DNA of 64,000 bases from Minisyncoccota bacterium (GCA_035627655.1 DASPLI010000001.1:195355-259354); one strand, 5' to 3'; numbered from the stretch's first letter, positions 1 to 30,764 are shown. Translations and numbers: made by a program. Notes: generated by a model not told the origin, from the letters alone.

Positions 1-654
1 AACGATCTCGGGCTTGCGGTGATTGCGGTAACCCTACTCGTAAAGATAGTTCTCATGCCGCTCTCCCTCTCCGCGGTAAAGACACAGAAAGCGATGAAAG
101 GGCTTGAACCTGAACTCAAGGCAATCCGGGAGAAATATAAAGAGCAGCCAGAAGTACAGGCGCGAGAGACCTTTGCGCTCTATAAGAAGTACAATGTAAA
201 ACCGTTTGCGAGCATTTTGATGCTCTTTGTGCAGATTCCGATCATTTTCGGGCTCTACTTCGTCTGTCAGGGTGCAGCACTTACCGCGCTTGACCCCTCC
301 CTCCTCTACTCGTTTATTCCAGTGCCGGAATCTATCTCTCCGCTGTTTCTCGGCATCTTTGCGGTGACCACCCCATCAATCGTGCTTGCGCTTGCGGCCG
401 CAGTAACACAGCTGGCACAGGCGTTCTACGCTATTCCTGTGCCGCCGAAGCCGGAGGGAACCCCAACCATGCAGGAAGAGTTCGGGCGCGCACTCGCGGT
501 CCAGGCACGCTTTATCCTCCCAGTCGTTATTGGCATCTTTGCCTATGTTGCTGGCGGCGCTATCGCGCTCTACTTCGTTGCCTCAAACGTCATGATGCTC
601 GCGCAGGAGTTTATCGTGCGCGGTACGCACAAGCCCCAGACGACTAGCGTCTAG
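1..654 (+). CDS. yidC: YidC/Oxa1-family membrane protein insertase, C-terminal part (5' end outside window)
   Basis: Frame is open from nt 1. Conserved YidC segment ...LSAVKTQKAMKGLEPELKAIREKYKEQPEVQARETFALYKKYNVKPF... followed by hydrophobic helices. Confidence 0.7.
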   Translation, partial: NDLGLAVIAVTLLVKIVLMPLSLSAVKTQKAMKGLEPELKAIREKYKEQPEVQARETFALYKKYNVKPFASILMLFVQIPIIFGLYFVCQGAALTALDPSLLYSFIPVPESISPLFLGIFAVTTPSIVLALAAAVTQLAQAFYAIPVPPKPEGTPTMQEEFGRALAVQARFILPVVIGIFAYVAGGAIALYFVASNVMMLAQEFIVRGTHKPQTTSV

Positions 655-1862
655 AGTTCGTACACCCAGAGAGAACCGTCCTTGCGGTTCGTGAACGTAA
701 GCGCAGTAGCATTCGGATCGATCGTGAGGCCGACTGCATCGATATCTACCTGCCCTACCGTCGAAGGATCGACAACCAATAGTGCAAGACGGCTCTCGAG
801 GTCTATCTTCCAAATACGATCAGAATACGAGATAACGCCCTGGTACCAATCATCTGGGGTCGTTCCAGAGAAGGATCGGGGTGCTGCACAGTAGACACTT
901 TGCTCGTTCGGCGCCCAGACGCATTTTTCAGGGAGGGTACCAAGCGGAATGACGGTTGAGATGCGGGTTGAGACATCAAGCATTTCTGTGCGCACGACGC
1001 TTCCAGAAAGGTAGCTGTAAAGAATGTATGAGCCTGACGGGCTTGGGAGCATGGTGAGGCCGCGCAGTGGTCCGAGCACGCGTTCAAAGACGCCGCTCGT
1101 ACCCCCGATAAGGAACCCGTAGCCATTTGCCTGTGCGGAAGCCTTCGTATAGGCAACATATCCTGGTCCTGCTGGCAAAATACGAAGCGACGAAAGGAGT
1201 GAGGTAAAGAGAGTACGTGGAGAGGAGCCATCAGGACGAGTAACGGTAGCGACAGATCCGTTTGCGTTTGGCAGAAGGGTGAGAAGTGTCGAGGTGCCGG
1301 TCACTGCCACATCGGAAAGGTCAGACTCAAGGAAGTAACCATCATCCCCCACGACCGGAAGCGCGAACGTTTCTACGTGAAGCTCTCCAGCATCTCCCTC
1401 GGCAAGAAAGCGTGCGTATGTGCGTGAGCCGTCAGAAAGCCACCGTGCTTCCATAACGCCGGGGAGTGTGCGGTTGGTGAGGCGGGTAAGCGTACGCGCA
1501 CCAAGTCGATACGAGTAAATGTGGCCACTCTGTCGCTCGATGTAGCGAATTTCCGTATCAATTGTGGGCGTGGTACTCCCCACTTCCCGTACCAGGAATA
1601 CTGCGACACCAACGGCTACCGGACCATCGGTAATTTTCGTGAGGTTTGGCGCAATTTGCTCTCCCGCGTTTCCGGAAGCTTCACCAAGCGGCGGAAGCTC
1701 GGCTTCGTTGATGGTCCCTGCTTCGTTAGAAGATCCAAAGAGATTCCCTGGCGTCTCTGTGGTAACCGCTGGTCCCTTGCCTGCAAAGAAGAGGAAATAT
1801 ATCGCAGCTCCGATGAGGAGAAGAGCGACTACGACACCGCCGATGATAAGAATTTTACGCAT
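651..1862 (-). CDS. hypothetical membrane-anchored secreted protein
   Basis: 403-aa ORF with an N-terminal TM anchor (ILIIGGVVVALLLIGAAIYFLFF) and a Ser/Thr/Gly-rich mature part. No recognisable catalytic motif. Confidence 0.45.
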   Translation of the reverse strand: MRKILIIGGVVVALLLIGAAIYFLFFAGKGPAVTTETPGNLFGSSNEAGTINEAELPPLGEASGNAGEQIAPNLTKITDGPVAVGVAVFLVREVGSTTPTIDTEIRYIERQSGHIYSYRLGARTLTRLTNRTLPGVMEARWLSDGSRTYARFLAEGDAGELHVETFALPVVGDDGYFLESDLSDVAVTGTSTLLTLLPNANGSVATVTRPDGSSPRTLFTSLLSSLRILPAGPGYVAYTKASAQANGYGFLIGGTSGVFERVLGPLRGLTMLPSPSGSYILYSYLSGSVVRTEMLDVSTRISTVIPLGTLPEKCVWAPNEQSVYCAAPRSFSGTTPDDWYQGVISYSDRIWKIDLESRLALLVVDPSTVGQVDIDAVGLTIDPNATALTFTNRKDGSLWVYEL

Positions 1863-1864
1863 AC

Positions 1865-2695
1865 CTATGGTGAGTCTATATCAGAGCAATATGGGACACT
1901 AGCAGTAAACGTTGTTATACGGGTACCCTCATTGACGCGACACTGATGTGCGAACTGGTATGAAGGTCGTTCAGTCGTCGTTTCTGTGAAAGCTGCGGAA
2001 CAGGACTCCTGATCATCATACGAGCCAAGCACCAGCTGTATACACTCATCACCTTCGCTAAAGTAATAGAGCAAGAAGCTGTACTCCCCCTGCGTCACTG
2101 GCACATTTCTATAGTGTTGCCCGTTTCCTATAGTTGCCGAATCATCATCATCCATTTGAGCGGCATTCGTACAAACATAGTAGCCATGACGCCCTGGATC
2201 TGCGCGGAATCCGTTATCCGTACAGCAGTAGCGAAGGTCCTCTGGAACCTGTCTTCCCTCCTCTATAACCCCACAACGGTCACGCGCTTCTTCGACCGTG
2301 GTGTCAAAGGACGCTTCCTGGATTTTCAATCCTTCAAGGTTGAGTGAGAGATTCAAGATTCTCGGATCAATGATGCCGAACACGATTGCTGGCGAGAGAA
2401 CCAGCACCAAGCCGAAGATCGCAGAGGTGATCATGTCTCGCACTTCTCCCTGCTGAAGCACTGACCCCTCCTGCATGATCGATTTGAAGCCGGCGCGAAT
2501 GATCTGGAAAATGGCGATGGTCGTTGCTGCGCCGATACATAGGCGGTACAGCATGTTGAAGAAATCTGGCAGCGAGCTGCTTGCTGCTGATTGAATTTCA
2601 TTGAGACCTGGGAGGCCAGTGAGCGGAATAAACTCCTGCGCGCTTACGATAAGCGGGCTTGCGGCAAGGAGCAGAATGGCGAGGTATTTATACAT
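1865..2695 (-). CDS. VirB2/TrbC-like pilin-like protein with C-terminal Cys-rich domain
   Basis: Signal peptide (LLLAASPLIVSA), then two hydrophobic helices separated by a short polar loop, which is the VirB2 pilin architecture. A C-terminal region of about 150 aa carries 12 Cys. Confidence 0.4.
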   Translation of the reverse strand: MYKYLAILLLAASPLIVSAQEFIPLTGLPGLNEIQSAASSSLPDFFNMLYRLCIGAATTIAIFQIIRAGFKSIMQEGSVLQQGEVRDMITSAIFGLVLVLSPAIVFGIIDPRILNLSLNLEGLKIQEASFDTTVEEARDRCGVIEEGRQVPEDLRYCCTDNGFRADPGRHGYYVCTNAAQMDDDDSATIGNGQHYRNVPVTQGEYSFLLYYFSEGDECIQLVLGSYDDQESCSAAFTETTTERPSYQFAHQCRVNEGTRITTFTASVPYCSDIDSP

Positions 2696-2697
2696 AC

Positions 2698-3654
2698 TTA
2701 GCGTCCGAAGATTCCGGTTGATCCGCTGCTAAAGCGGAGCGTCAGGCTGGTTTCCGCTCTCGCTTCCGGTCCAGTTGCCGTTATGCCAAGAAGCGCGGTA
2801 CCGCTTCCGCCAGTTGATCGTACGGTGACGTCAGGGCCCGTACCGCTTCGGTTTCCATTGAGCGTCCACTGCAGCGTCGGCGTGTTCTTGAAGAAGAACG
2901 GAAGTGCGCGGAAGGTTTCCTCTGCTCCCGCCAGGGTAAAGGTACCGGAAAGCGCATGGTCAAAATCAATACCTTCAAGCGGATCGGTTCGGTAGATGCG
3001 CACGATCGGGTCGACCGGAGAAATGTTCACGGTCGTCTGTGCAGAAATACTTTTCGATTGTGTAGTGGCCGTTACGGTAATGGTTGCGTCTCGGTATTGT
3101 GGGGGCGCGGAGGCGCGTAAGACATTTTTTCCAAGTCCGGACTCAGCTTCAAGAATCTGGGTACCAAGCTTCCAGGTGTAGACAATCTGCTCGTTCGGCA
3201 CGCGCGTTCCAGGCGCAGTACGAATATCCGCAAGCGCCACGATGCGCACCGATCCCTCGGACGGGACGAGGCTCGCGCCTTTATAAAGCGGATGATTGGT
3301 CGCTATAGGTTCGACAATGACCGATACGTCTGCAGGAGCGATCGTTGCCTGCTTGGTGAAGGTGCCTTCTGCCCCTTGAGCATTGACAGAAATGGTTGTT
3401 CTCGTGCCAGGCCCACCCATCTTTATTTGGGTGCTGCGAAGCCCCTCCTCTACAACGGAGCCGTTTGCAGAAATGGTAATCGTGCTTGCTGCAAGATCAA
3501 TGGCGTTACTGGAAACGGTGACCGTAACCATCTCATATGGGCGAGGATAGTTTGGGGAAATATTGATCGTTAGCGGGTCAGTGCTTACTTGAGCAGACGC
3601 AAATGATGGCGTCATGACGCCAATGAAGAGGATTCCGACTATGAGACGGAGCAT
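2698..3654 (-). CDS. hypothetical secreted protein (signal peptide; start trimmed to MLRLIVG)
   Basis: The six-frame ORF runs to 4011 but overlaps the upstream gene. The internal Met followed by a hydrophobic signal (ILFIGVMTPSFASAQ) gives a start that does not overlap. Mature part is Thr/Ser-rich and beta-rich. Confidence 0.45.
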   Translation of the reverse strand: MLRLIVGILFIGVMTPSFASAQVSTDPLTINISPNYPRPYEMVTVTVSSNAIDLAASTITISANGSVVEEGLRSTQIKMGGPGTRTTISVNAQGAEGTFTKQATIAPADVSVIVEPIATNHPLYKGASLVPSEGSVRIVALADIRTAPGTRVPNEQIVYTWKLGTQILEAESGLGKNVLRASAPPQYRDATITVTATTQSKSISAQTTVNISPVDPIVRIYRTDPLEGIDFDHALSGTFTLAGAEETFRALPFFFKNTPTLQWTLNGNRSGTGPDVTVRSTGGSGTALLGITATGPEARAETSLTLRFSSGSTGIFGR

Positions 3655-3682
3655 TACTACACAGTATAGCCTGGAGCGAGGC

Positions 3683-4513
3683 TTATTCGTATTCGTCGGG
3701 GATATCTCCACGACCCTGACGCCGCTCAAGCTCCTGTTCGCGCCTGCGCCTGCGAAGCTCAGCCAAATTCTGTCTGGCAGTTGCGTAGCGTCGGTGGAGA
3801 TCTTCCACATGGCTATCAAAGGTACCGCGGGTTGCCGGAGAATCGATGGTTGCACGCGGCGCCTCGGCAGCAATCGCCTGCATTTGGCCGCGAAGAGACC
3901 CAACACCTCCCTTCGCCTCCTCTTTGCTGACCTTCTTACGGCCATAGGCCACCTGTGCCGCCATACGGTTACTCCCTCGCTCGTACGCCCGGCCAAGCAT
4001 GCGGCCGGCAAGTCCGCCGGTTAGGCCACCAACCAGCCGACTATTGGCGACATTTGACCAGAATTTTCGTGCTCGGAGACGTTTTTCGAGCAGTTTGCGC
4101 TTCCCTACCGTGTCCTCGATACGGGTAGCGACAATCATAAGGACGACGCCTGCGGTAATGGCTGGGAGCGAGTTGAGAAACGGCACAAGGTCGATAACCA
4201 GGGCCGCAAAGATTGCCAAGAGCTTCATCGCCGCCTGTTTGCCGGTGAAGTAGTTGACCCGCTTTGTGGCAAACCATACGCCAAAGGTACAGAACGAGAT
4301 GATGCTCATCAAAAGCGGAAAGATAATGCTCGGAATGAGCCCGATGATGGGAATAAACACGAGGAGGCCAAACACGAGCTGGAAGGCGTCAAAGAGAAAC
4401 GCCACCCCTATCATCGTTCCACCCTCGATATTGGAGATGCGGAGCTGCGAGTCGGCATCATCACGGCCAGGATCTTCAAGTCTGGCGCCGGGTGCAAGGA
4501 CGGGTGCTGCCAT
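3683..4513 (-). CDS. hypothetical integral membrane protein (T4SS-associated by position)
   Basis: Three to four TM helices near the N-terminus and a basic C-terminal tail. Lies immediately upstream of VirB4. Confidence 0.45.
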   Translation of the reverse strand: MAAPVLAPGARLEDPGRDDADSQLRISNIEGGTMIGVAFLFDAFQLVFGLLVFIPIIGLIPSIIFPLLMSIISFCTFGVWFATKRVNYFTGKQAAMKLLAIFAALVIDLVPFLNSLPAITAGVVLMIVATRIEDTVGKRKLLEKRLRARKFWSNVANSRLVGGLTGGLAGRMLGRAYERGSNRMAAQVAYGRKKVSKEEAKGGVGSLRGQMQAIAAEAPRATIDSPATRGTFDSHVEDLHRRYATARQNLAELRRRRREQELERRQGRGDIPDEYE

Positions 4514-4516
4514 ACA

Positions 4517-6346
4517 CTACGCCTCCTTCTCCATCTCAAGACGCTGTCGTTCGCGTTTTATGGAAAGTAGCTGAGACGGATCTGAAGTGATGATTTGGTC
4601 CTCCGTGTAGGAAGCAACAATCTTAATCGCCACGTGCTTGAGGCCGGCAAAGAAGAGTCCCTCCCCTACCCCTGACTCAAGCAGAAGGAACTTCTCCTCA
4701 TCCGTGAGGTTGAAGATATCCATCAGGAGGTCGATGGTTGTCGGTGACTGTTTCAGAAGAAGCTGAATGGAGGAGTTCGTGAGAATTGGCTTTCCGTACG
4801 GACTGCGCAAGAAGTCTTCCACGTCCTGGGTAATCGTCGAGACGCCGAGATAGTACTTACGACCACGCTTTGCAAGGCTGTAGAGGAAGGAAGCGGTGTC
4901 TTCCGATTTCATCATCCACCACGCCTCGTCGATCACGAGTAGGCGCTTCTTGAGCTCATGTCGTACCGCGTTCCAAATGAAGTGCGTGACGATGTACATG
5001 GCGACTGGCTTCAACTCGTCTTCCATGTCGCGAACGGAGAACACGACGAACTGCTTCGTAATATCGACGTTCGTTGGCTGGTTGAGGAAGCCAGACCACG
5101 TACCCTTCGTATACTTGGACAAACGCTGAATGAGTGAAGCCGATCCTTCCATGCCGGAAAGCACGTTTTCAAAGTCTGAAAGCAGCGGAGCTTCGATGCC
5201 GGTGAAGTCCGCGTCCCCGGTAATGTCTTTGAGCGCATACGTCTCCGTAATGGCGCGGTCGACAATGGCATCTTCTTCAGGCGTCAGTCCGCCAAGCATG
5301 ATGCGGAAGAGGCCAACGAGGTTGATGATGTTTGAGCGGAGCACGTCGGACGGGTTTTCGTCCTCTTTTACCGGCGGCAAGTCAAACGGATTGATATGGT
5401 GCTCGCTTGAAAGCGAGATGTTGAACATACGGCCGCCTGTTGCTTCAGCAAGATATTCGTATTCACGCTCCGGGTCGATCACGATGACATCCGTCTCAAA
5501 CATCAAGGAGCGGAGAATCTCCAGCTTCACCGCATACGATTTACCGGAACCGGACTTTGCGAAGACGACGGAGTTGTAGTTTTCAAGCGAGAAGCGGTCA
5601 AACAGAATCAGAGATGCGTTGTGGCGGTTGATGCCGTAGAGAATGCCGCGGTCAGACGTGAGGTCGAACGAGACAAACGGGAAGATAGACGACAGCGGCG
5701 ACGAGTTGAGCTTGTTGTGGACTGCAAGCTCATCAAGTGCAAGCGGGAGTGTCGAGCGGAAGCCCTGCTCCTGCTGGAAGATTGCTGGTTTTGTAGAAAT
5801 GAGACGGGAGTCGAGAATGCCGCGCACATCCGCCTCAATCTTATCGAGCTCCTCCTTGGACGAGCCGTACATGGTGAGATAGAGGCCAACTTCAAAGAGC
5901 CGTTCTTGAGCCTGCTGCAGCTGGTCGCGAAGTGCTTCAAGGTCCTGATACGCGGTATCAAGCATGGGGTCGCGCACCAAACCTTTCTCTGTTCGTTCGC
6001 TGATCTGGCTCTGCACCTCGGCGACCTTCTTCTGAAAGTTGCGCAATGCCTCCCCTGTCTCAAGCGGATGAATGAAAATGCCGATATCGAAGACGCGCGC
6101 AAGGTTGATGATTGGCGTAAACCAGCTGTCCGTCAGATAGCGTGGATAGGAGATGGTGTAGAACGTGCGGGAAAGCTTTTCTCCAAGCTCGAGCTCGCGG
6201 GCAGATACCTTGAGAGCTGCTGGCGCGATGGTGTCGGCAAGCGTAAGGGTACCCTGGTTATAAATGTCCTGCGGTAATGCCGGAGCAATGACGGTTGAGG
6301 CCGTCGCCGGAGCTTCTTTCTTCTTGAAAAAGTCGAGTAGAGCCAT
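4517..6346 (-). CDS. virB4: VirB4/TrbE/CagE-family type IV secretion ATPase
   Basis: 609 aa. Walker A VFAKSGSGKSYAVK, Walker B LLVIDEAWWMM. N-terminus (FYTISYPRYLTDSWFTPI...DIGIFIHP) resembles Gram-positive PrgJ/TraE-type VirB4. Confidence 0.85.
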   Translation of the reverse strand: MALLDFFKKKEAPATASTVIAPALPQDIYNQGTLTLADTIAPAALKVSARELELGEKLSRTFYTISYPRYLTDSWFTPIINLARVFDIGIFIHPLETGEALRNFQKKVAEVQSQISERTEKGLVRDPMLDTAYQDLEALRDQLQQAQERLFEVGLYLTMYGSSKEELDKIEADVRGILDSRLISTKPAIFQQEQGFRSTLPLALDELAVHNKLNSSPLSSIFPFVSFDLTSDRGILYGINRHNASLILFDRFSLENYNSVVFAKSGSGKSYAVKLEILRSLMFETDVIVIDPEREYEYLAEATGGRMFNISLSSEHHINPFDLPPVKEDENPSDVLRSNIINLVGLFRIMLGGLTPEEDAIVDRAITETYALKDITGDADFTGIEAPLLSDFENVLSGMEGSASLIQRLSKYTKGTWSGFLNQPTNVDITKQFVVFSVRDMEDELKPVAMYIVTHFIWNAVRHELKKRLLVIDEAWWMMKSEDTASFLYSLAKRGRKYYLGVSTITQDVEDFLRSPYGKPILTNSSIQLLLKQSPTTIDLLMDIFNLTDEEKFLLLESGVGEGLFFAGLKHVAIKIVASYTEDQIITSDPSQLLSIKRERQRLEMEKEA

Positions 6347-6348
6347 AG

Positions 6349-6984
6349 TTAGTTGTTGTTGAGTCGGATTGGCGTCTCAAGCTCGCCGAGGTTAAACGAG
6401 CGATAGAGGAGCTCAATCACTTCTTCAGTGCCTAGTGCCACTGCGCGAACACCAGTCGCTGCGATACTTGCAGCAACAAGCGCCATGCGCTGCTCGAGTT
6501 GCACACGATGCTCGTCAAAGCTCCCTGAAAGTCCCTGCGTTGTTTGTGACTTCTTCCCTCCTCCGATAAATGGCACTGCCTTGGTGACGGCAACTGGTGC
6601 GGGATTGTACGGTACGACGAGATAAAAGATCTTCGTCATAATGTCCGATCCTTCAATAAAGTTTTTAACGAACTGAATGTACTCGCGTACCTGAATGTTC
6701 ATGAGCTCGGTCTTCTGCTTCCCTTCGCGCTCGGCAAGCAGTGCCAGGTAAGGCCGAATATCCATCTTCCGTGAGTGGACGACGATCTCAACCGTGAAAT
6801 CAAGTGTATTCAAAAAGGTCTGAAAGCCGCCGATGATCGCGCGCTGCTCATCTTCCGACTTGAGGGCGAAGTTGATGGACGAGCACATGAGGATGCCACG
6901 ATAACCGCCATCCTTAAGGATCACGATGCCATTTCTGACTTCTTGGACGGGAACAAAGGACTGTGTTGGTTTTGCGTCAGGCAT
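6349..6984 (-). CDS. VirB4 N-terminal-domain-like protein (separate ORF directly upstream of virB4)
   Basis: 211 aa, no TM. The segment VILKDGGYRGILMCSSINFALKSEDEQRAIIGGFQTFLNTL resembles the N-terminal domain of long VirB4/TrbE proteins. Its stop lies 2 nt before the virB4 ATG, in another frame. Confidence 0.45.
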   Translation of the reverse strand: MPDAKPTQSFVPVQEVRNGIVILKDGGYRGILMCSSINFALKSEDEQRAIIGGFQTFLNTLDFTVEIVVHSRKMDIRPYLALLAEREGKQKTELMNIQVREYIQFVKNFIEGSDIMTKIFYLVVPYNPAPVAVTKAVPFIGGGKKSQTTQGLSGSFDEHRVQLEQRMALVAASIAATGVRAVALGTEEVIELLYRSFNLGELETPIRLNNN

Positions 6985-6988
6985 AGGG

Positions 6989-7417
6989 TTATGGCTGCGG
7001 TGGCGCGGTATCTTTCACATCAAGCGACCAGGCAAGCTCCGACAGTTTCCGGCGGGACAGGCCCTCGTGCGGGAGCACTGATTCGGCGGGTGTTGGCGTC
7101 CTTTGAAGCGCTGGTGATGGGTTTGGTGTTACTGGCTTCTCTTCGCGCCTCCAGAGATACAGACGTCGACCGAGATAGTAGCTAAATGCGTATTCAAGGA
7201 TGTTCGGAAACGGTTTTCCGTTTACCTTGTAGAAAGCAAAGGCAGCAGCAAGTCCAGCAACCGGGATTGAAACAATGAGGCCGATCATAAAGGGTAGATT
7301 GAGCATGATCACGACCACCAGTCCCGCTCCGCCAGCGATATAAATGAATTGCTTGAGCGTCAAAGGACCAAAAATCTTGTCCTCTACTTCAATGAACTGT
7401 GGTACCTGATACTCCAT
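6989..7417 (-). CDS. PrgI/VirB3-like small T4SS membrane protein
   Basis: N-terminus MEYQVPQFIEVEDKIFGPLTLKQFIYIAGGAGLVVVIM followed by two TM helices, which is the PrgI-family signature. Confidence 0.6.
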   Translation of the reverse strand: MEYQVPQFIEVEDKIFGPLTLKQFIYIAGGAGLVVVIMLNLPFMIGLIVSIPVAGLAAAFAFYKVNGKPFPNILEYAFSYYLGRRLYLWRREEKPVTPNPSPALQRTPTPAESVLPHEGLSRRKLSELAWSLDVKDTAPPQP

Positions 7418-7447
7418 TAGTATCTAGTATACCAAGCATCTGCCTCC

Positions 7448-8281
7448 CTATTCGATAGGTTCGCGATATGGATCGCTTGCGTATGGCTTTGGAGTGGGCG
7501 GTGTCGGTTTTGGTGGCTGCGGAGTAGGAGGTTTTGGAGCAGAAACAGGCGGTGTTGGCGTTGGGGCCGAAGGAGGAACAGGTTTTGGCACCTCTGGCTT
7601 TTGCGGTGGCGGTACTGGTGGCGTTGGTGGAGTGTCTATGACTGGTTTTGGAGCTGGAGCGGCTTGTGGCTGCTGTTTGGGCGGTATAGGAGCGGTCGGC
7701 TTAGGTGTCTGAGTACTAACAGTAGAAGATGTTTGGGGTTTGGGCACGGGAGAAGCTGGAGGCTTTGCAGAAGAGGTTGCTGACGCAGGTTTTGGAGCCG
7801 CTAGCTTCTGAGGTGTTACCTCATGTTTGGGAAGCAGGTGATCTGGAGGAATAGGTCTAGGAGTCGTAGAAGCAGGCTTCGGTTGTGATTTAGGAGGTTG
7901 CGGAACTGGCGGAGCAGTTTTCGCCGGCGCAGTCTCTACTTCCCGCACCTCTTCTTTGGGAAGGGGAACTTCATACCCGTACACTACGGGTTTTTTGTAC
8001 GCTTCCAAGACATCTTTGGTTATGCGGTCTGCAATAGAAGCGGCCGTTGATTCCGGGAGAAAGGTTTTTAGCTCAGAAAGAACCGTGTTGGGCTGGATAA
8101 GACCAAGCAGGGCTGCGTACGCAACAGCGTTGAGCTGACTTCCGACTTGTGGGGTCAGGGTGTGGTCGAGCTCGATCGCAAGCACCGCATCTGTAAACAG
8201 GCCATCATCTAGAAACCGCTTTACTTCTACGGAAGCATGATCACGAGCTTTCTGGAGCTGTTCATTGGGAATCTGCATCAT
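7448..8281 (-). CDS. hypothetical protein with Pro-rich low-complexity C-terminus
   Basis: Globular N-terminal region of about 110 aa, then about 160 aa of P/T/A/K-rich sequence (PKPxxPxPP repeats). Confidence 0.5.
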   Translation of the reverse strand: MMQIPNEQLQKARDHASVEVKRFLDDGLFTDAVLAIELDHTLTPQVGSQLNAVAYAALLGLIQPNTVLSELKTFLPESTAASIADRITKDVLEAYKKPVVYGYEVPLPKEEVREVETAPAKTAPPVPQPPKSQPKPASTTPRPIPPDHLLPKHEVTPQKLAAPKPASATSSAKPPASPVPKPQTSSTVSTQTPKPTAPIPPKQQPQAAPAPKPVIDTPPTPPVPPPQKPEVPKPVPPSAPTPTPPVSAPKPPTPQPPKPTPPTPKPYASDPYREPIE

Positions 8282-10539
8282 ATGCCGTAGAAGTTACGGA
8301 ACTTTGCCCGCTCACCATTACCAAGGTTACTCAAATGAGTCTCAAGTGCGCGGCGCCGTGGATCGCCCGGAGGCCTATTTGCAATTGATCGAACATGGTT
8401 AACCACTGTCTGTTTCGGTGGTCCCGTAATCTGATCTTGAACCGCAACTTGTACAAAGTCTGCTGGCTTAAGGCTCGGCAAGACATTCTGATGCGCAAGC
8501 GTTGACGCTGGAAGCTTAGCGCGTGAAGTGGGTGACATTTGTGCCAAGGTTGCAGCAGCTGCTTGTGGCGAGCCAAAGCGCCCACCCTGCTCAGTACCAG
8601 TTCGCAGATTCTTAAGTTTTTGTACGGTACCGCCGCCAAAGTCTGGGTGCTTGATGATTTCTGCAAATTGATCATCGCTGACCATATGCATGAGCTGGTT
8701 ACGTGTATCTGGCTTATCGAGCAGGCCAGCGCTGACAAGGTCTTCGACATCTTTCTCACGGATCGCTTTAGCATTACCGTCTCTGACCAGTCTCCTAATG
8801 CCGCCGTAGCGTTCCTTCTTCATGACTTCCTTCGCCGCCCCGTTCAGCTCCTTGTCTTCCATAAGACTCTTGAACTTCGACGACTTCATGAGAGTTGCGG
8901 CCTGCTTGAGATCGGACTCACTTGCCTTGCCGAGCGTTGCGCGCAGTTCGTCAGGCTTCATCTTGCGTAGTGCAACCTCAAGTTTGTCAGAATCACCGTC
9001 TCGAGCATCGCTAAAGGCCTTGCGAAGTTCAAGTCGGTTCTCAACTGACTCCATGCGCTCTCCGTGTTCGGCGCGACTTTCAGCACCCACGTTATCGCGG
9101 ATGTTCTGCCACAGGGTCTTCCCTTCCTGGGCCTTATCAAGGCGACGCATTTCTTCTCGGCGCGACTTGCTTTCCGCTGCACGCTTCGAGTAGCTGTCCA
9201 TGCCCGTACCTGGAACCGTAATATTCTGCGCACCCTGGAGCGTGCCGCGTATCGCGCTATCAACTGCGCTGCCGCCTGCCGCGCCAACCAAGAAGCGAAG
9301 CGGTGCCGGCGTAACTCGACGCCAGAAGCGGGACTGTTGGTTGTACACCTTGCCCATCGCATTTGCGCCAGCACCAAGCGGATAGAGCACCGGACTTGCT
9401 GAAGCGGTGCCGATAAACTTCATCGCGCGGCTTACAACGGCCTGTGAGCCAAAGAGACTTAGATAGTTTGCTGCCTGGAGCGCGGCAAGCATGAAACCGA
9501 CGGTGACGGCGAACATGACGAAGATAGAACCAACATTCGCATTGGTGTTGGTGAGCACCTGGAGAATGTTCTGGTCGCCGACGAAGCTGGCGCGAAGACC
9601 ATCGGAAATCTTGAGACCGATCAATATAAGAAGCACGAATACCGGCGCGAAAGCCGCGTTCTGTATCAGTTTCTTCCACCAGGTTTCAGAAAAGCCCTGA
9701 AGGCCTGGAATCGCCGCTCCGGCAAGGCCAATCGGTGACGTGATCATGAGCAGCATGAGCGCGATAGCGCGCGAGATGAGCATGATGGCGCCTGCGACCA
9801 GTACGCCGATCATGACGATCACGAACACGAGAAGCGCGAACGCAAGCACAATTCCCTTCATTTCTCGTCCTTGCAGCGCTCCGAAGAACTCAGCAACGCT
9901 CTGATCCCCGTTGAGCATTCCTGAAAGGCCGCTCGTTTGGAAAACTGCCGCCGCAATTCCCTGGTCCTGACAGGTCTCGGTGTTCGTTGAGTTTGAACAG
10001 TCGACATTCGTTGCCTGTTCGTAGACGGTTGAGCCGAGTGCGTTTGCAACATCGATAACCGCCTCTGCAGCAAAGAGGCTGAAGTTCAACAGCACCGCAA
10101 AGATGATGAGTGTTGGGAGTGTCCTGCCGGCATCATGCTTGTCGACGCGAAGAATGGTCTGAATGCCGATGTAGATGAAGCCAAAGAGGAGCGCCATGTT
10201 CGCAAGGTCGCGAAGAATGCCCCAGGCAAGCAAGAGGCCGCTTGAGTTGCCGAAGTAATCGGAAAAGCGGAAGACGGTGACATTCACCACCCAGTTGAAG
10301 AACATGCCGATCCAGCCCAAGAGGAAGTTGAATGCTTCGACAAACAACAGCAAAAGTCCCGCAACCAACCCGGCAAGTCCGGCCCCCAGAGCGTTCATGA
10401 TTTCCTGCCCTACGTCGATTGCGTGCGCAGCAGGAGAGAACGCCGTCATGCCGACGATAACAAAAAGAAGCAGCACTCCGCTCTTAAGGAGCGTGCCGCG
10501 CGCAAGGGAACGTTTCGCTATATGCCAAAGGGACTGCAT
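8278..10539 (-). CDS. VirB6/TrbL-like polytopic membrane protein with large hydrophilic C-terminal domain
   Basis: 753 aa. Signal/TM, then at least six TM helices in the first 370 aa, then a charged soluble domain. Size and topology are typical of VirB6-like proteins of Gram-positive and candidate-phyla T4SS. Confidence 0.5.
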   Translation of the reverse strand: MQSLWHIAKRSLARGTLLKSGVLLLFVIVGMTAFSPAAHAIDVGQEIMNALGAGLAGLVAGLLLLFVEAFNFLLGWIGMFFNWVVNVTVFRFSDYFGNSSGLLLAWGILRDLANMALLFGFIYIGIQTILRVDKHDAGRTLPTLIIFAVLLNFSLFAAEAVIDVANALGSTVYEQATNVDCSNSTNTETCQDQGIAAAVFQTSGLSGMLNGDQSVAEFFGALQGREMKGIVLAFALLVFVIVMIGVLVAGAIMLISRAIALMLLMITSPIGLAGAAIPGLQGFSETWWKKLIQNAAFAPVFVLLILIGLKISDGLRASFVGDQNILQVLTNTNANVGSIFVMFAVTVGFMLAALQAANYLSLFGSQAVVSRAMKFIGTASASPVLYPLGAGANAMGKVYNQQSRFWRRVTPAPLRFLVGAAGGSAVDSAIRGTLQGAQNITVPGTGMDSYSKRAAESKSRREEMRRLDKAQEGKTLWQNIRDNVGAESRAEHGERMESVENRLELRKAFSDARDGDSDKLEVALRKMKPDELRATLGKASESDLKQAATLMKSSKFKSLMEDKELNGAAKEVMKKERYGGIRRLVRDGNAKAIREKDVEDLVSAGLLDKPDTRNQLMHMVSDDQFAEIIKHPDFGGGTVQKLKNLRTGTEQGGRFGSPQAAAATLAQMSPTSRAKLPASTLAHQNVLPSLKPADFVQVAVQDQITGPPKQTVVNHVRSIANRPPGDPRRRALETHLSNLGNGERAKFRNFYGI

Positions 10540-11981
10540 TGTCGTTGTAGCTGGTTCATCTCCATGACCAGGCTTGGCGAAGCGCCATCGGTATCAAAGT
10601 CTCGGCTCTCGTTTGCCGCCTCCGCTATCTCCTGTCCTGTTGGGAGGGAGTTCGAAGCGACAAACTGTTCGTATTCCTGGAATCCGATTCGTATCTGTTC
10701 AGTTGCGTTTGGACCGGTCGTGCTCAACTTTGCTTTTATTTCATTCAACCGAGTGATCGCTGCCTGACCCTTTGCAATTCCCGCGTCCGCCCGCGCGATC
10801 GCGTCTGCAATCTTTGCGTCGCGTGCGGCGTCTGCGCTCCTGCGGTCGCACATTTCCTTTGCGGCAAGCGCTGCGGAACGGATGGTCTGCCAGTCGCTCA
10901 CAAACTCTTCCAGGCGATTGATCTGTCCATTGATAATGTTGATGGTATTGCTTGCGACACTGGTACCCTGTCCGGCATTTCCTCCCGTCGCGTCATCAAG
11001 TGGCGAGGTGCCGCTATTACCGGGGCGTGAGGTGCCGGCAAGACCACCGTCTTCAAACATCTGATTCATCAACTGAGTCAGAAGACCGACGAGCACTTCA
11101 TCAAGCTCGTCCGCGCTGATCAAGGATTCAATATCGGCTCCTGTCACCTCGGTAAGTCGGTCAATTGCGATCGAACCGAGCGTCGTTGTCTCACAATCGG
11201 CAGAGCCGCCAGGAGGAGACTGAGTCAACTCCGTCTCCCCTTCTCCTTCTGCAGCGCCGCCAGTAGCCGGCTCTTCTGGTTCCGAGCATGGCGAGAACAA
11301 GCCGCGCGACCAATCAAGCTGTGTGCGGCGCGAGTCCTCTGCCGATCCAACGCGCCTGCCAAGCTCGCTTTCCGTGGTTCGAAATGCACCGAAGAAGTTG
11401 TTTTGACTATCACCCCATGCCGCTACCCAAGCACGCAGTCCGCCGCGATCCTGTCCGAACCCCTGGGTCAGGAACGCTTCAGCATCAATTGCTGTCTCAT
11501 CAAGCGTAAAGCGGTTATTTATGAAGAATGAGTTTTGTGCCGTGCGGCGGCGGTAGCTATCGCGAATACTATCGATCAAACGGTCGCGAAACGGCGAGGT
11601 GATAGCGCCCTCCGCACCAAGTTCCCCGAGAAAGTCGTCAGCAACTTGATCTGCCAGTAGCTGGAGATCGCGTCGGAGGTTGGTCACGAATGCTGGAGAG
11701 CCGTCAAAGCCCGAATTCATCCAGTTGATGGTGGTCTTTGCGACTGATTCGATAGCCCGCTGCGCGGCCATGCGCGCAAGTGGGTCGAGCACGAACTCCT
11801 TTACCGTAATCTGCTCGTCAAAGATCGCAGAAAGCGTGTTTTGAATAGTGTTTGCAAAGTCGGCAACGGCCCACTGCGCCTTCGCTTCGCGCGGAGCAAG
11901 TGCGCTTCCTGAAAGAACGAGCACAGCAAGAACGAGCGTCGCGGCGATTTTTCGCACGATGCTGTTTGGGTTGTTGTGCAT
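10518..11981 (-). CDS. hypothetical secreted protein
   Basis: Signal peptide (LAVLVLSGSALAPREAKA). 487 aa with an acidic, coiled-coil-like C-terminal region. Confidence 0.45.
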   Translation of the reverse strand: MHNNPNSIVRKIAATLVLAVLVLSGSALAPREAKAQWAVADFANTIQNTLSAIFDEQITVKEFVLDPLARMAAQRAIESVAKTTINWMNSGFDGSPAFVTNLRRDLQLLADQVADDFLGELGAEGAITSPFRDRLIDSIRDSYRRRTAQNSFFINNRFTLDETAIDAEAFLTQGFGQDRGGLRAWVAAWGDSQNNFFGAFRTTESELGRRVGSAEDSRRTQLDWSRGLFSPCSEPEEPATGGAAEGEGETELTQSPPGGSADCETTTLGSIAIDRLTEVTGADIESLISADELDEVLVGLLTQLMNQMFEDGGLAGTSRPGNSGTSPLDDATGGNAGQGTSVASNTINIINGQINRLEEFVSDWQTIRSAALAAKEMCDRRSADAARDAKIADAIARADAGIAKGQAAITRLNEIKAKLSTTGPNATEQIRIGFQEYEQFVASNSLPTGQEIAEAANESRDFDTDGASPSLVMEMNQLQRQCSPFGI

Positions 11982-11983
11982 GG

Positions 11984-12979
11984 CTACTCAGGTAGAGCGG
12001 CTGTTCGCTCGATGATCACGTAGAACTGGTAGCCCGGTTCCCCTTCCTGTAGCTGAATGCCCGCAGCCTGCAAGCTCGGGTACAAGCCAGCAAATGCTGC
12101 TGCCATATCGCGGGTAGCTTCCGTATAGGCGTCAAAGCCCACGAAGCCGCGCAGCGGGTCGGTATCAAACGTACCCATGTCACCGATGGTTGCGCCAACC
12201 GTTGCAACGGCGTTTACCATTGCGAGATGTTCTGATGAGATGCTTTGCGGTACTGCAACGCGCGACAATGCAAGCGCAATACGCTCGTATGCCTTCGCGG
12301 ATGCACGCACAGCAGCAAGCGCCGCCGCATCGTCTTTCTGGACCGCATCGGCAAAACTGTAGAGTTCGCTTCGCGCGCCCATCAGCGAGTTGGCGTTGAT
12401 CGCCGCTTCTCCAGCAATCAGGTAAGTCGTGAGCGCCTCAGTGCTATCGGGCACAATCGTCAGTTCCTCGTCGGCATACAAAGCGGCACGGGTCGCCTCA
12501 AGATCGTCGATCGCTTCCTGAATAAAGGCGAGCATAGCCTCTTCGGTCGGCGCCTCCGGACCGCGAGACGTGAGATAGGAACCGAAGAAGTCGCGAGCGA
12601 ATCGACCGGTCATCGTTTCCGGCTTTGCGTCGACTCCCGGAAGATCAAAATCCGTAGAGGGTTCGGGTTTTTCAGATTCAAACCGCGGTTTTATCAACCC
12701 TGCCTCGACCGCTGCCTTGTCGGTCATGCTCGGATCAATAGAGTGCGGATTGCGAGGATCGGAACCGTAGAGGTCTTCCTGCCAGTCAGGGAGCAGGTCG
12801 GCATCGGTGTCTTTGGTTGCGTAGGCGCGAAGCAGCTCTTCCGTTGAGGTTGCACTTGCTGTTGGGAAGCGTGCCGTGCCGGAGAGAAAGAAGGCAGTGA
12901 TGATGCAGAAAGCCGCTATAGCGAGCGAAATAAGGATGCTGACTCTCCGGGTAGAAAACTGCATACTAGTCAAGGACAT
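11984..12979 (-). CDS. hypothetical membrane-anchored surface protein
   Basis: N-terminal TM (ILISLAIAAFCIITAFFL). Contains a motif DTDADLLPDWQEDLYGSDPRNPHSIDP resembling a calcium-binding TSP3/dockerin-like repeat. Confidence 0.45.
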   Translation of the reverse strand: MSLTSMQFSTRRVSILISLAIAAFCIITAFFLSGTARFPTASATSTEELLRAYATKDTDADLLPDWQEDLYGSDPRNPHSIDPSMTDKAAVEAGLIKPRFESEKPEPSTDFDLPGVDAKPETMTGRFARDFFGSYLTSRGPEAPTEEAMLAFIQEAIDDLEATRAALYADEELTIVPDSTEALTTYLIAGEAAINANSLMGARSELYSFADAVQKDDAAALAAVRASAKAYERIALALSRVAVPQSISSEHLAMVNAVATVGATIGDMGTFDTDPLRGFVGFDAYTEATRDMAAAFAGLYPSLQAAGIQLQEGEPGYQFYVIIERTAALPE

Positions 12980-13018: not shown

Positions 13019-13798
13019 TTAGTTTTTGAGCATTTGCGCGAGTAATCGCCACGTTTCTATAGAAAGGTCTTCAGCTCGAGCTTTTTCCTTTATTTGTGCG
13101 CGGGCAAACGCAGCAAGGAGCGCGGTTCGGGACGCCACCTCTTCCAAATTCTTCATGAGGAGTTTCCGCTTATGAGCAAATCCAGCTCGTAAAACCTTGA
13201 AAAACCATTCTTCTGCTTCATGATCGGGAAAGGCGTCATCATGAACATCCTGCACCGAAAGTACAGCTGAATCGACCTTTGGTGCCGGTCGAAACGCGCC
13301 CCGGGGAACGGTGAACTGATAGCGGGGCGTTCCATATGCCTTGATGGCAAGTGACAACAGGCTCTCTTTCTTACTTCGTGCGATACGTATCGCCACCTCC
13401 TTTTGGATAAGAAAGGTCAACGAACGGGGTTTGTGCGTTGCCGTGAGGAACTGGCGAAAGAGCTCTCCGGTTATGTAGTACGGAATATTTGCGACGAGAT
13501 GGTACGGCTCCCCGATAGAGGCGGGGTCAAAGGTGCGGACGTCTCCCGCGATCAGTTCGAGACGTCCAGACGTTAGTTCGGGGGCAAAGGCCGCCTGAAG
13601 TACCGGTATAAGATCCTGATCCGCCTCAACGGCAATTACCCGGCGCGCCTTCTGCAACAGCGCGCGTGTCAAAAGCCCGGTACCCGGGCCAATTTCAAGT
13701 ACAGTATCGCGCTCCCCTACGCCGGACGCCGCAACAATCCGTTCGGCGGTAGCGGCATGCATAAGGAAGTTCTGTCCGAGCGATTGCTTTGCACGCAT
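13019..13798 (-). CDS. rsmA: 16S rRNA (adenine1518/1519-N6)-dimethyltransferase RsmA/KsgA
   Basis: MRAKQSLGQNFL...LEIGPGTGLLT SAM-binding motif...NIPY. Start trimmed from the longer six-frame ORF to the Met preceding KQSLGQNF. Confidence 0.8.
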   Translation of the reverse strand: MRAKQSLGQNFLMHAATAERIVAASGVGERDTVLEIGPGTGLLTRALLQKARRVIAVEADQDLIPVLQAAFAPELTSGRLELIAGDVRTFDPASIGEPYHLVANIPYYITGELFRQFLTATHKPRSLTFLIQKEVAIRIARSKKESLLSLAIKAYGTPRYQFTVPRGAFRPAPKVDSAVLSVQDVHDDAFPDHEAEEWFFKVLRAGFAHKRKLLMKNLEEVASRTALLAAFARAQIKEKARAEDLSIETWRLLAQMLKN

Positions 13799-17544: not shown

Positions 17545-18684
17545 GTGGCTCACAGGAGCCACTTTGTACTCGGAAGAAACGCCAGAAACACCCTTCACCT
17601 TCTTATCTTCGATTCCAAACAGACCCCGAAGTCCCGCGCCCATGGCGGATTCCGGGATACATACTGGGCGATTCTCGCGGTAACCATCGCGGGCATTGCT
17701 GTTACGGTCGTCTTCAGCGCCTTCCCCATTCCAGTCGGGGCGTTTTGGCCGTTTACGACGACGCGTGCCGCTGAAGAGGTTGAACCCGTCCTCCACGACA
17801 GCTCCCTCGCCCTCCTTGATCCTGCAACTAACCCTGATCCGAATCCGGCCAAGGGCGGCCTTCGCCTTGCTACGACGGAGAACTCCGCCCTCATTGCAGG
17901 CGCAAGTATCGAGGGCACTCTCCCCTCTTCTGCCTCGGTGGTTGGTGGTGGCGGGGGTGCGATTTCCCTCTACGAGGTTCGCGAAGGCGATTCCCTTTCA
18001 GATATTGCTGAAATGTTCGGCGTATCCGTAAACACCATTCTTTGGGCAAACGACCTTAAGAGTGCTTCCGATATTCACCCGGGCGATAACCTCCTCATCC
18101 TCCCGGTCTCAGGCGTGCAGCATAAGGTTGCGAAGGGTGATACGCTCGCGAAGATCGCAAAGAAGTACGATGCTGATCTTGAGGAAGTCGCGATCTATAA
18201 CGGTCTTGATACCGATGTAGCGCTTGCTGTTGGCGAGACGATTATCGTGCCGGGCGGAGACCACGTTGTTACCACCAAGTCTTCTACCTCTACCAAGAAG
18301 AGCAGTACCACTGCAAAGGCACTTCCGGCAGTCTCTGGCTACTTCGGCAACCCGGTTCCAGGCGGCCGCCTCACGCAGGGCGTGCACGGCAATAACGGTG
18401 TCGATATTGGCGCACCGTCTGGCACTCCTATTTATGCTTCAGCAAGCGGTACGATTATCGTTGCGAAGTCTGGCGGCGGATATAACGGCGGTTACGGAAA
18501 CTACATTGTTATTTCCCACGACAACGGTACGCAGACGCTCTACGCTCACATGTCCGGCCTTGCGGTGTCTGGTGGCGCAGTCGCAAAGGGTGATCTTATC
18601 GGCTACGTCGGCAACACCGGACGCTCGACGGGTAATCACCTCCACTTTGAGGTACGCGGTGCGCGAAACCCATTCGCAAACTAA
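17545..18684 (+). CDS. LysM-domain M23 family peptidase (cell-wall hydrolase)
   Basis: TM anchor, then two LysM repeats (YEVREGDSLSDIAEMFGVS..., HKVAKGDTLAKIAKKYDAD...). C-terminal M23 domain with GVDIGAPSGTPIYA...HLHFE. Confidence 0.75.
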   Translation: MAHRSHFVLGRNARNTLHLLIFDSKQTPKSRAHGGFRDTYWAILAVTIAGIAVTVVFSAFPIPVGAFWPFTTTRAAEEVEPVLHDSSLALLDPATNPDPNPAKGGLRLATTENSALIAGASIEGTLPSSASVVGGGGGAISLYEVREGDSLSDIAEMFGVSVNTILWANDLKSASDIHPGDNLLILPVSGVQHKVAKGDTLAKIAKKYDADLEEVAIYNGLDTDVALAVGETIIVPGGDHVVTTKSSTSTKKSSTTAKALPAVSGYFGNPVPGGRLTQGVHGNNGVDIGAPSGTPIYASASGTIIVAKSGGGYNGGYGNYIVISHDNGTQTLYAHMSGLAVSGGAVAKGDLIGYVGNTGRSTGNHLHFEVRGARNPFAN

Positions 18685-19712: not shown

Positions 19713-20306
19713 ATGACCTACACCGCTAAAACCTTTGCACTTCCTGAGCTTAAGGGTCTCTCAAAGAAGCAGATTGACGTGCATCTTGCGCTCTACGAGG
19801 GCTACGTAAAGCACGTAAACCTTATCGTCGATACCATCCAGCGCTTGCGCGAAGAGGACGCTGAAAAGAACGCCTTTACCATCAATGAACTGCGCCGCCG
19901 CATGGGCTTTGAGTTTGATGGCATGCGCATGCATGAGTATTACTTCGAGCAGTTTGAGGGCGGACCATCTATCGCTGACCCGGAAGGATCACTCCGCAAA
20001 GCGGTTACGGAGAAATACGGCGGCTGGGATCAGTTCATCGCGCATATAAAGGAAGTAGCTGGTACGCGCGGCATTGGCTGGGTAGTCGTGTACTTCGACG
20101 TGCGTGGCGCAACGGTACACACGGCGTTCGTAAACGACCATGAGCTTGGACAGCTGTCCGGCCTCCCTATTCTGCTTGCAGTTGATCTGTGGGAGCACGC
20201 CTTTATGGTCGACTACGTTCCTGCCGAAAAGAAAAACTACGTCGAAGCGTTTCTTGAAAACGTGAATTGGACCGTCGTAGACCGCCGCCTCTCGGAAGCC
20301 CTGTAG
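19713..20306 (+). CDS. sodA: Fe/Mn superoxide dismutase
   Basis: N-terminal LPELKGLSKKQIDVHL...YEGYVKH and C-terminal DLWEHAF(Y)xxDY metal-ligand motif. Start trimmed to MTYTAKTF (ATG at 19713). Confidence 0.85.
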   Translation: MTYTAKTFALPELKGLSKKQIDVHLALYEGYVKHVNLIVDTIQRLREEDAEKNAFTINELRRRMGFEFDGMRMHEYYFEQFEGGPSIADPEGSLRKAVTEKYGGWDQFIAHIKEVAGTRGIGWVVVYFDVRGATVHTAFVNDHELGQLSGLPILLAVDLWEHAFMVDYVPAEKKNYVEAFLENVNWTVVDRRLSEAL

Positions 20307-28686: not shown

Positions 28687-29273
28687 TGGTCGAGAAGGTT
28701 GCGAAGCGTTGCGCTACCGATCATGGTCACGACGTTTGGCGCTCGATTTGGGTTGAGGTCCACCATGAGCGTGACCGCGACGGATGCAATCTCAGAGATG
28801 TCCGGCGAGGTTGTGGCAAGCTGCGTTCCTGTACCGTCATAGTACTTGAAGAGCGGCGTCGTCGACGCGTTACGCACATACGTTGCAATCGTGGTCGTTG
28901 CTGAGGTTTGTCCGCTATACGACGGCGGATTCCCGCCCGCGTTCGTAACCACCTTATAGAAGGTGCCGTTGTAGATCCACAATTTTATCCGCTCGATACC
29001 GCCGTCTTTGTCGGTATCTGAATAGAGTGTAATGCTTGATGTTGCTGCGGTTGCGATCGGATAATTGCCGTCGTCCGCGTATGAGGCTTCGCGTATGTCT
29101 CGCAGTGCAGTTTGCAAACCCCGCTGCGCGCTGTCGACGGATGTCGTGGCTTCAAATACGTAGGCATTTGAACGATAAAAGTCGCGGATGATGAATAGCA
29201 GTGTTCCTGAGACCGCGCCCAAGATGGCGATCACCACCACCATTTCCATCATCGTAAAGCCGCGCATCTTCAT
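28683..29273 (-). CDS. type IV pilin/pseudopilin-like protein (class III prepilin signal)
   Basis: MKMRG|FTMMEMVVVIAILGAV, that is a G-F-T-x-x-E prepilin cleavage/methylation motif. Confidence 0.65.
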   Translation of the reverse strand: MKMRGFTMMEMVVVIAILGAVSGTLLFIIRDFYRSNAYVFEATTSVDSAQRGLQTALRDIREASYADDGNYPIATAATSSITLYSDTDKDGGIERIKLWIYNGTFYKVVTNAGGNPPSYSGQTSATTTIATYVRNASTTPLFKYYDGTGTQLATTSPDISEIASVAVTLMVDLNPNRAPNVVTMIGSATLRNLLDQ

Positions 29274-29277
29274 ATCG

Positions 29278-30738: not shown

Positions 30739-30764
30739 GTGTCTATGATAACGCACGCCGTTGG

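Follow-up and report, generated by a model that had tools for sequence, protein, structure and literature searches.

Layout of the block and its chromosomal setting

The stretch of DNA studied here (the window) comprises 64,000 nucleotides (nt) of a Minisyncoccota bacterium (GCA_035627655.1 DASPLI010000001.1:195355-259354) and carries, near its left end, a type IV secretion system (T4SS) locus of 11 minus-strand open reading frames (ORFs). This block spans positions 651-12979, with junctions of -22 to +30 nt between neighbouring ORFs. It encodes a split VirB4 ATPase (a TrsD-like protein and the C-terminal part), a PrgI/VirB3 protein, an extended VirB6, one VirB2-like pilin and six conserved envelope or uncharacterised proteins, and all 11 ORFs are intact. 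The source contig (ENA ERZ27252484) has a length of 742,731 bp and belongs to Candidatus Paceibacterota (candidate phyla radiation) according to the NCBI annotation; the genome is ultrasmall, and an independent gene call on this contig gave a gene set identical to that of our ORF prediction. The genes of the block are given in the order of transcription, followed by two neighbouring genes:

11984..12979, minus strand: g11 (331 aa), membrane-anchored helical protein with a DxDxDGLxDW motif and a transmembrane (TM) segment at residues 13-31; first gene of the block
10518..11981, minus strand: g10 (487 aa), exported all-alpha protein with a TrbJ-like N-terminal motif; signal peptide ending in ..AKA before QW
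8278..10539, minus strand: extended VirB6-like protein (753 aa) with a polytopic TM domain (residues ~40-360) and a helical-repeat C-terminal domain (residues ~450-753)
7448..8281, minus strand: g08 (277 aa), helical N-terminal domain of ~100 aa, long Pro-rich linker and C-terminal DPYREP motif
6989..7417, minus strand: PrgI/VirB3-like protein (142 aa; PF12666) with an N-terminal hydrophobic hairpin
6349..6984, minus strand: TrsD-like protein (211 aa), matching the N-termini of VirB4 models; 2 nt upstream of VirB4
4517..6346, minus strand: VirB4 ATPase (609 aa), C-terminal two thirds of a full VirB4
3683..4513, minus strand: g04 (276 aa), polytopic membrane protein with a basic C-terminal tail
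2698..3654, minus strand: g03 (318 aa), exported protein with Ig-like repeats; signal peptide ending in ..ASA before QV
1865..2695, minus strand: g02, VirB2-like pilin (276 aa) with a signal peptide ending in ..VSA before QE, two hydrophobic helices and a cysteine-rich, variable C-terminal domain of 158 aa
651..1862, minus strand: g01 (403 aa), N-terminal membrane anchor with a TM segment at residues 4-22; last gene of the block
13019..13798, minus strand: ksgA/rsmA, 16S rRNA dimethyltransferase (PF00398 RrnaAD); upstream boundary gene, located beside the block in relatives as well
17545..18684, plus strand: cell-wall hydrolase with LysM (2e-23) and Peptidase_M23 (1e-28) domains; outside the operon, 4.6 kb away

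The first-pass annotation of this stretch had placed a conjugation-like T4SS cluster at 1865-10539 and had described it as eight co-directional minus-strand genes with short or overlapping junctions. These eight genes, from g02 to VirB6, are present as described, with junctions of -4 to +30 nt, while the extent proved too narrow for the full unit, which runs from 651 to 12979 and holds 11 genes. The secreted and membrane proteins which had been put forward as further candidate components (g01, g03, g04, g10 and g11) are co-linear with the core in most relatives.

Terminator-like and promoter-like sites occur within the block at a frequency not above that of shuffled sequence. Together with the short junctions, this makes a single long operon of 11 genes the simplest reading. 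The gap between ksgA and g11 measures 39 nt, and ksgA and the block are possibly co-transcribed. On its other side, the block is flanked by yidC-rnpA-dnaA-dnaN: yidC lies on the opposite strand and converges on the far end of the block, while rnpA, dnaA and dnaN are found just past the left end of the window. This places the block in the region of the replication origin. Its GC content (0.53-0.56) equals that of the remainder of the window, and no paralogue of any block component was found elsewhere in the window.

Relatives were taken as the best 80 of at least 575 species genomes with a VirB4 match, all of them Patescibacteria metagenome-assembled genomes; within these 80, VirB4 is 74-89% identical to the window copy, and together with the locus of the source contig they make up the 81 loci referred to below. 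Gene order was obtained from tblastn and iterative hidden Markov model (HMM) searches. Synteny in relatives, a check that had been suggested along with the initial cluster call, is indeed found: the block order recurs among the 80 related loci, the commonest order being uvrD-ksgA-g11-g10-VirB6-g08-PrgI-TrsD-VirB4-g04-g03-g02-g01, followed by yidC on the other strand. Two further near-complete contigs (L095 and L096) show the identical order. In a subgroup of about 25 genomes (L018-L042), only the half from PrgI to g01 adjoins yidC, and the g11-g10-VirB6-g08 half lies more than 10 kb away or is missing. At the one locus of this subgroup that was examined (L018), genes for TIM, PGK, RecJ, RNase H, ComEC and an M50 peptidase are located upstream of the PrgI-to-g01 half. 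The operon is hence made up of two separable modules, g11-g10-VirB6-g08 and PrgI-TrsD-VirB4-g04-g03-g02-g01.

Components of the apparatus and their conservation

The ORF at 4517-6346 can, by its sequence, be assigned to VirB4 securely, as had been claimed before. It passes the cut-off of the NCBIfam model conju_CD1110 (E 3.3e-112; 376 bits against 325; model positions 183-733 of 752), matches Pfam P-loop_TraG (E 8e-25) as well as the PDB profiles of 4AG5, a VirB4 C-terminal domain (E 2e-44), and of R388 TrwK (7e-9), and its translation contains intact Walker A (KSGSGKSY) and Walker B (LLVIDEAWW) motifs. The protein encoded just upstream, at 6349-6984, had been overlooked as a T4SS component. 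It matches positions 2-118 of CD1110 (E 2.5e-5), positions 103-233 of VirB4_plasma (E 2e-7) and TrsD (E 1e-3), with PF26593 (TraC-like) as its precomputed Pfam match, and is the separately encoded, TrsD-like N-terminal domain of a split VirB4. The split is kept in 78 loci. The closest plasmid VirB4s, CD1110-family proteins of Bacillota and Actinomycetota, are at most 36% identical to the window copy. A CedB-type ATPase, as in the archaeal Ced system, was considered and rejected: VirB4 reached 37.3 bits against a cut-off of 700, within the P-loop region only.

The membrane partners of the ATPase were also identified. PrgI, already recognised as a PrgI-family protein in the first-pass annotation, exceeds the gathering score of PF12666 (E 3e-10; 40.9 bits against 27), has its TM region at residues 21-51 and is present in 76 loci. 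The large polytopic protein at 8278-10539 had been called VirB6-like, and this holds as well: while the window copy scores just below the TrbL threshold (23.8 bits against 25.9; E 4.4e-5; model positions 27-213 of 215), TrbL is matched by five of 30 orthologues, and the family member P0065, 34% identical to the window copy, passes at 32.4 bits. An AlphaFold2 model, built from an alignment of 118 sequences (pLDDT 83.4), was compared to the PDB with Foldseek, and R388 TrwI/VirB6 chains made up five of the six best matches (probability 0.87-1.0), with target-normalised TM scores of 0.39-0.52 and E values of 0.1-0.9. Residues 450-753 form a confidently modelled helical-repeat domain, and the protein thus corresponds to an extended VirB6. 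Profile-to-sequence comparisons with hhalign, in which our family profiles were aligned to the single sequences of clostridial CD1112 VirB6 and of R751 TrbJ, TrbL and TrbC, delivered signal-peptide matches only and were set aside.

Between VirB6 and PrgI lies g08, which is found at this very position in all 50 loci that contain it. It lacks a signal peptide and a TM segment and is soluble, and its C-terminal DPYREP motif is invariant across these loci in the consensus of 51 sequences. Neither a Pfam nor an NCBIfam match was obtained for the window copy, nor a Pfam match for the orthologues scanned. The protein could be an adaptor or a secretion substrate.

The pilin g02 yields no Pfam match at E<=0.1 in its window copy. 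Its assignment as VirB2-like, which had been made in the first-pass annotation, is upheld by an aligned set of 31 sequences, comprising the window copy and 30 positional orthologues: PF18895 (T4SS_pilin) is matched by 27 of the 31 (best 3e-11) and PF04956 (TrbC/VirB2) by 17. The window copy is 23-38% identical to the orthologues and shares with them the signal peptide, the two hydrophobic helices and the core motifs. Beyond this core, every pilin carries a C-terminal extension (residues ~119-276 of the window copy) which spans 83-293 aa among the orthologues. Averaged over pairs of sequences, identity amounts to 51% in the core and 16% in the extension, and the number of cysteines in the extension is even (2-16) in 30 of the 31 sequences. 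These features suggest a domain that carries disulfide bonds and is exposed on the surface. In those conjugative pili whose structure has been solved, the termini of the pilin point outward; if this is valid here, the extension would decorate the filament surface. The main texts of PMC12102498 and PMC10633639 do not mention the extension.

A further candidate of interest is g10, whose gene overlaps the VirB6 start by 22 nt. An exhaustive search of representative sequences assigned 5490 representative clusters to its family (E<=1e-3), for which no Pfam model exists. The mature N-terminus reads (V/I)xDxxNLxQNxxxA, in another notation IPVxDxxNLxQN..A, and resembles that of TrbJ. Among 78 members of the g10 family, nine match NCBIfam TrbJ (best 1.3e-6) and nine match Pfam DUF4141 (best 5.6e-7), and an hhalign comparison between the family and eight aligned TrbJ proteins gave a probability of 73% (E 3e-5) over just 34 columns. 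Besides, g10 lies directly upstream of VirB6, comparable to the order trbJ-(trbK)-trbL in IncP-type plasmids. A full-length TrbJ match was not obtained (15.9 bits against the NCBIfam cut-off of 225, confined to residues 14-53). The all-alpha model of g10 has a pLDDT of 74.7, with the most conserved stretch (W87, G91, F92, G94, P96) modelled below 50; no VirB5/TrwJ chain appeared among its top 50 Foldseek matches in the PDB, none of which reached E<=0.001, and the PDB profile search returned no VirB5 match either. We thus do not put g10 forward as a true VirB5 and retain it, at the level of the motif, as a candidate VirB5-like partner of VirB6, which is a lead and not a finding. A TrbJ/VirB5-like partner is not mentioned for the Patescibacteria clade in the main text of PMC12102498 or PMC10633639.

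The four assignments VirB4, PrgI, VirB6 and VirB2, for which profile searches had been recommended, are hence upheld by profile, orthologue or fold tests, and the objection that only an orphan VirB4 might remain does not apply. The earlier statement that VirD4, VirB11 and relaxase are missing from the window was confirmed, too: precomputed Pfam annotation lists no type IV coupling protein (T4CP), VirB11 or relaxase family among the called genes of the 64-kb window and ~10 kb on either side, and phmmer with a clostridial VirD4-like query found no match in the window or in the 81 related loci. In addition, no VirB1-like hydrolase and no VirB8-like (NTF2) protein was recognised among the 11 products by Pfam, NCBIfam or PDB-profile searches, the latter covering all products except g04 and g08.

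Conservation differs strongly between the components. In the 36 genomes holding all compared genes, mean identity amounts to 79% for VirB4, 59% for TrsD and 50% for PrgI, compared to 52% for KsgA, 44% for YidC and 36% for g03 and g01. Loci were picked by VirB4 similarity, which inflates the VirB4 mean somewhat, yet the gap to KsgA and YidC is still large. Consequently, the ATPase is under stronger constraint than the housekeeping genes beside it, while the parts of the system at the surface evolve fast. Based on the synteny, the conservation of VirB4, its identity of at most 36% to plasmid homologues and the core order shared with plasmid pCDC3875 (see below), we argue for a core chromosomal machine, vertically inherited under strong constraint, that derives from a monoderm conjugation apparatus and is not a mobile element. 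The reading as a mobile element is rejected on the grounds of synteny, uniform composition and conservation.

Relation to known systems and candidate function

Feature by feature, the locus is a further example of the T4SS published for Patescibacteria. VirB4 was found in 2,417 of 3,035 Patescibacteria genomes, mostly as one clade nested in MPF_FATA, and TrsD, PrgI/VirB3, VirB6 and VirB2-like pilins were detected near virB4 (Quinonero-Coronel et al., 2025; PMC12102498). The same study reported relaxases in just 103 of these genomes and VirD4/T4CP homologues in most of them, usually far from virB4, and located the T4SS of Paceibacteria close to dnaA, dnaN, rnpA and ksgA. Our locus likewise combines VirB4, TrsD, PrgI/VirB3, an extended VirB6 with a helical C-terminal domain and a VirB2-like pilin, is chromosomal, lies near dnaA, rnpA and ksgA and has neither relaxase nor T4CP in the cluster. 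The T4SS of Southlakia epibionticum, as described by Wang et al. (2023; PMC10633639), is unusual and Gram-positive-like; its pilins are essential, and neither a coupling protein nor a relaxase could be recognised. Both T4SS and pilin genes are required for epibiotic growth of this organism (PMC10633639). A 2025 review restates the findings of the two papers and adds that comEC is dispensable (PMC12857230). The gene cluster SEML1_0005-0019 of S. epibionticum also encodes an exported Ig-like protein (SEML1_0005, PEGA/Ig, corresponding to g03 here), and its VirB6-like proteins carry a helical C-terminal domain comparable to that of the window copy. However, it possesses six short pilins in an array, while our block has one pilin with a long variable cysteine-rich C-terminal domain; it contains two VirB6-like genes instead of one; and its operon includes lysozyme-like and NTF2 (VirB8-like) genes, neither of which is present in the operon described here. 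In turn, the conserved genes for g01 (a probable beta-propeller), g04, g08, g10 and g11 are additional and are not named in PMC12102498 or PMC10633639.

Outside of the Patescibacteria, the conjugative MPF_FATA systems of Gram-positive type (CD1110/CTn2 type; Prg/Pcf of pCF10) come closest, as the CD1110 equivalog cut-off is passed and outer-membrane core proteins are absent from both. The Clostridium botulinum plasmid pCDC3875 shows the order VirD4-x-VirB6-PrgI-x-VirB4-x-SLT hydrolase and thus has the core order VirB6-PrgI-x-VirB4 in common with the window, while conjugation-specific genes are added in the plasmid. Unlike these conjugative systems, our block lacks a VirD4-like CD1115 and a relaxase as well as an SLT/CHAP hydrolase within the cluster; its VirB4 (itself MPF_FATA-type and CD1110-like) is split and at most 36% identical, a pilin is present, and the block is chromosomal and vertically inherited. 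With the R388 Trw and IncP Trb systems it shares the VirB2/TrbC-type pilin, the VirB6 fold (TrwI being the best PDB match) and a TrbJ-like exported protein upstream of VirB6. However, the outer-membrane complex of VirB7, VirB9 and VirB10 is lacking here, as are VirB11 and VirB8, and g10 is twice the size of IncP TrbJ, without a structural match to VirB5. Helicobacter ComB, Bordetella Ptl and Brucella VirB also do without VirD4, ComB without a relaxase as well (PMC12857230). In contrast to our locus, these are diderm MPF_T systems with outer-membrane cores, and no specific sequence relationship to them was found.

What might such a machine do? We consider it probable, with some reservation, that the block builds a pilus and host-contact apparatus that moves a cargo across the cell interface and does not serve plasmid conjugation. 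The first-pass annotation had also preferred contact or uptake over plasmid transfer, in agreement with the published view (PMC12102498; PMC10633639). We infer docking, pilin extraction, polymerisation and host contact by analogy. A hexamer of TrsD/VirB4 would dock on PrgI and VirB6 in the membrane, extract the Sec-inserted pilin and polymerise it on the VirB6 platform, and the exported g10 may cap the filament in a VirB5-like manner. The filament would then cross the wall, perhaps aided by the nearby LysM-M23 hydrolase, and display the variable, presumably disulfide-rich domain of the pilin to the host cell, while the Ig-like g03 and the putative beta-propeller of g01 would support wall spanning or adhesion. 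The basis of this analogy is the R388 structure and the pilus-biogenesis model that Mace et al. reportedly presented in 2022.

Several points weigh against this reading. The window copies of VirB6 and of the pilin fall below Pfam thresholds, so that the identity of the pilin rests on orthologues and that of VirB6 on orthologues together with a fold match at E 0.1. VirB8-like and in-operon VirB1-like proteins were not found among the 11 products, and a coupling protein may be encoded elsewhere on the contig, outside the window and its ~10 kb flanks. The VirB5-like role of g10 rests on a motif of 34 columns, while the fold and PDB-profile searches gave no VirB5 match. The essentiality data stem from a different class (Saccharimonadia). 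Finally, we know of no experiment on any Paceibacteria T4SS and of no pilus that has been seen.

As an alternative, the block might serve DNA uptake in the manner of Helicobacter ComB or archaeal Ced: T4SS and pilin would capture or import DNA of the host or the environment, and ComEC would bring it into the cytoplasm as a source of nucleotides. As in ComB, T4CP and relaxase were not found at the locus. ComEC (20237-21739) and RecJ (22757-24487) are encoded 8-12 kb from the block, at L018 the comEC gene lies even ~2 kb upstream of PrgI, separated from it by two unassigned ORFs and the peptidase M50 gene, and import of DNA or macromolecules has been proposed (PMC12102498). Nevertheless, we regard this function as unlikely: deletion of comEC in S. 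epibionticum abolishes transformation and not viability, while the T4SS is essential; competence of this organism depends on type IV pili, whose PilB and PilC genes are present in the window as well; the likeness of VirB4 to CedB is confined to the P-loop (37 bits against 700); and a ComB-like step would call for an outer membrane, which monoderms lack. Even less likely is a working conjugation apparatus that employs a distant coupling protein and an unrecognised relaxase for the transfer of chromosomal or episomal DNA. The affiliation of VirB4 with the conjugative CD1110 family, the VirB6-PrgI-x-VirB4 order known from pCDC3875 and the VirD4 homologues encoded away from virB4 in most Patescibacteria genomes (PMC12102498) speak for it. 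However, neither relaxase, T4CP, integrase nor an element boundary was found near the block, its position at the origin is fixed among related genomes, and the pilin is atypical for Gram-positive conjugation; only 103 of the 3,035 surveyed Patescibacteria genomes contain relaxases, and S. epibionticum can do without its T4CP.

If the block were a decaying, non-functional remnant of an ancient integrated conjugative element, the missing coupling protein, relaxase, VirB8-like and in-operon VirB1-like genes and the split of VirB4 would be accounted for. We give this idea hardly any credence, as all 11 ORFs and the Walker motifs are intact, the split itself is kept in 78 loci, VirB4 exceeds the adjacent housekeeping genes in conservation, the persistence of the block in a genome as small as ~0.74 Mb speaks for a function, and the homologous system of S. 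epibionticum is essential.

Within the preferred reading of a pilus and host-contact apparatus, one might speculate that the system is a chimera: a Gram-positive-type TrsD/VirB4 and PrgI would drive a Gram-negative-style stalk and pilus of VirB6, g10 (VirB5/TrbJ-related) and pilin, the variable domain of the latter being a fast-evolving host-recognition adhesin. This proposal is possible, though doubtful. If it were true, including the adhesin, host range would be readable from one gene. To our knowledge, no T4SS other than that of Patescibacteria is known to be indispensable to its own carrier. A large part of bacterial diversity belongs to the Patescibacteria, most of which live attached to other microbes. 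While the locus adds no new kind of system, it provides a complete example from Paceibacteria with defined operon limits; its additions are six conserved unnamed partners, the variable domain of the pilin, the candidate TrbJ-like partner of VirB6 and the split into two modules. Pilin domain and TrbJ-like partner are testable leads that could guide structural or genetic work in a tractable Paceibacterium.

Remaining envelope proteins and neighbouring genes

Four of the unnamed products are envelope proteins that were recovered in most or many of the 81 loci. The last gene of the block, g01, is found in 67 of them, always between the pilin region and yidC. No Pfam or NCBIfam model matches it; the top 12 PDB matches of its orthologue profile are all TolB, albeit weak (E 0.011-0.06), and its ectodomain is a probable TolB-like beta-propeller. 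For g03, present in 79 of the 81 loci, a profile built from 69 orthologues matches Hoc of phage T4, which has Ig-like domains, at E 6.5e-6. Iterative HMM searches recovered g04 in 63 loci, with no Pfam or NCBIfam match for the window copy and no Pfam match for the orthologues scanned. At the opposite end of the block, g11 occurs in 42 loci with 54 copies and is duplicated in some relatives; it gave no Pfam or PDB-profile match and, for the window copy, no NCBIfam match.

The gene of the LysM-M23 hydrolase is divergent from uvrD and lies upstream of it, a position that is equal in the two Paceibacteria contigs L095 and L096. The hydrolase may stand in for the absent VirB1, a link to the system that would fit the VirB1-type matches with M23 and LysM domains reported near virB4 in Paceibacteria (PMC12102498). 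Between ksgA and uvrD, the plus strand encodes a UbiA-family prenyltransferase of 541 aa (13845-15470) for which no homologue was detected in the 80 related loci; it represents a lineage-specific insertion, while the surrounding gene order is otherwise conserved.

No integrase was found near the block, the sole integrase-family gene of the window being located 47 kb away. It encodes a XerC/D-type tyrosine recombinase (60013-60981) and adjoins the gene of a 607-aa protein with a weak TgpA_N match only (61018-62841); four tRNA genes lie at 54403-56890, and the genes at 60013-62841 have no evident link to the T4SS. Closer to the block, an RNase H gene belongs to the same group of competence genes as ComEC and RecJ. 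The window furthermore holds a type IV pilus set (within 27241-38095), comprising PilC/T2SSF (30765-31979) and PilB/T2SSE with MshEN (36353-38095), together with a prepilin-like protein carrying an N-methylation motif (28683-29273) and a CarboxypepD_reg protein (29278-30756).

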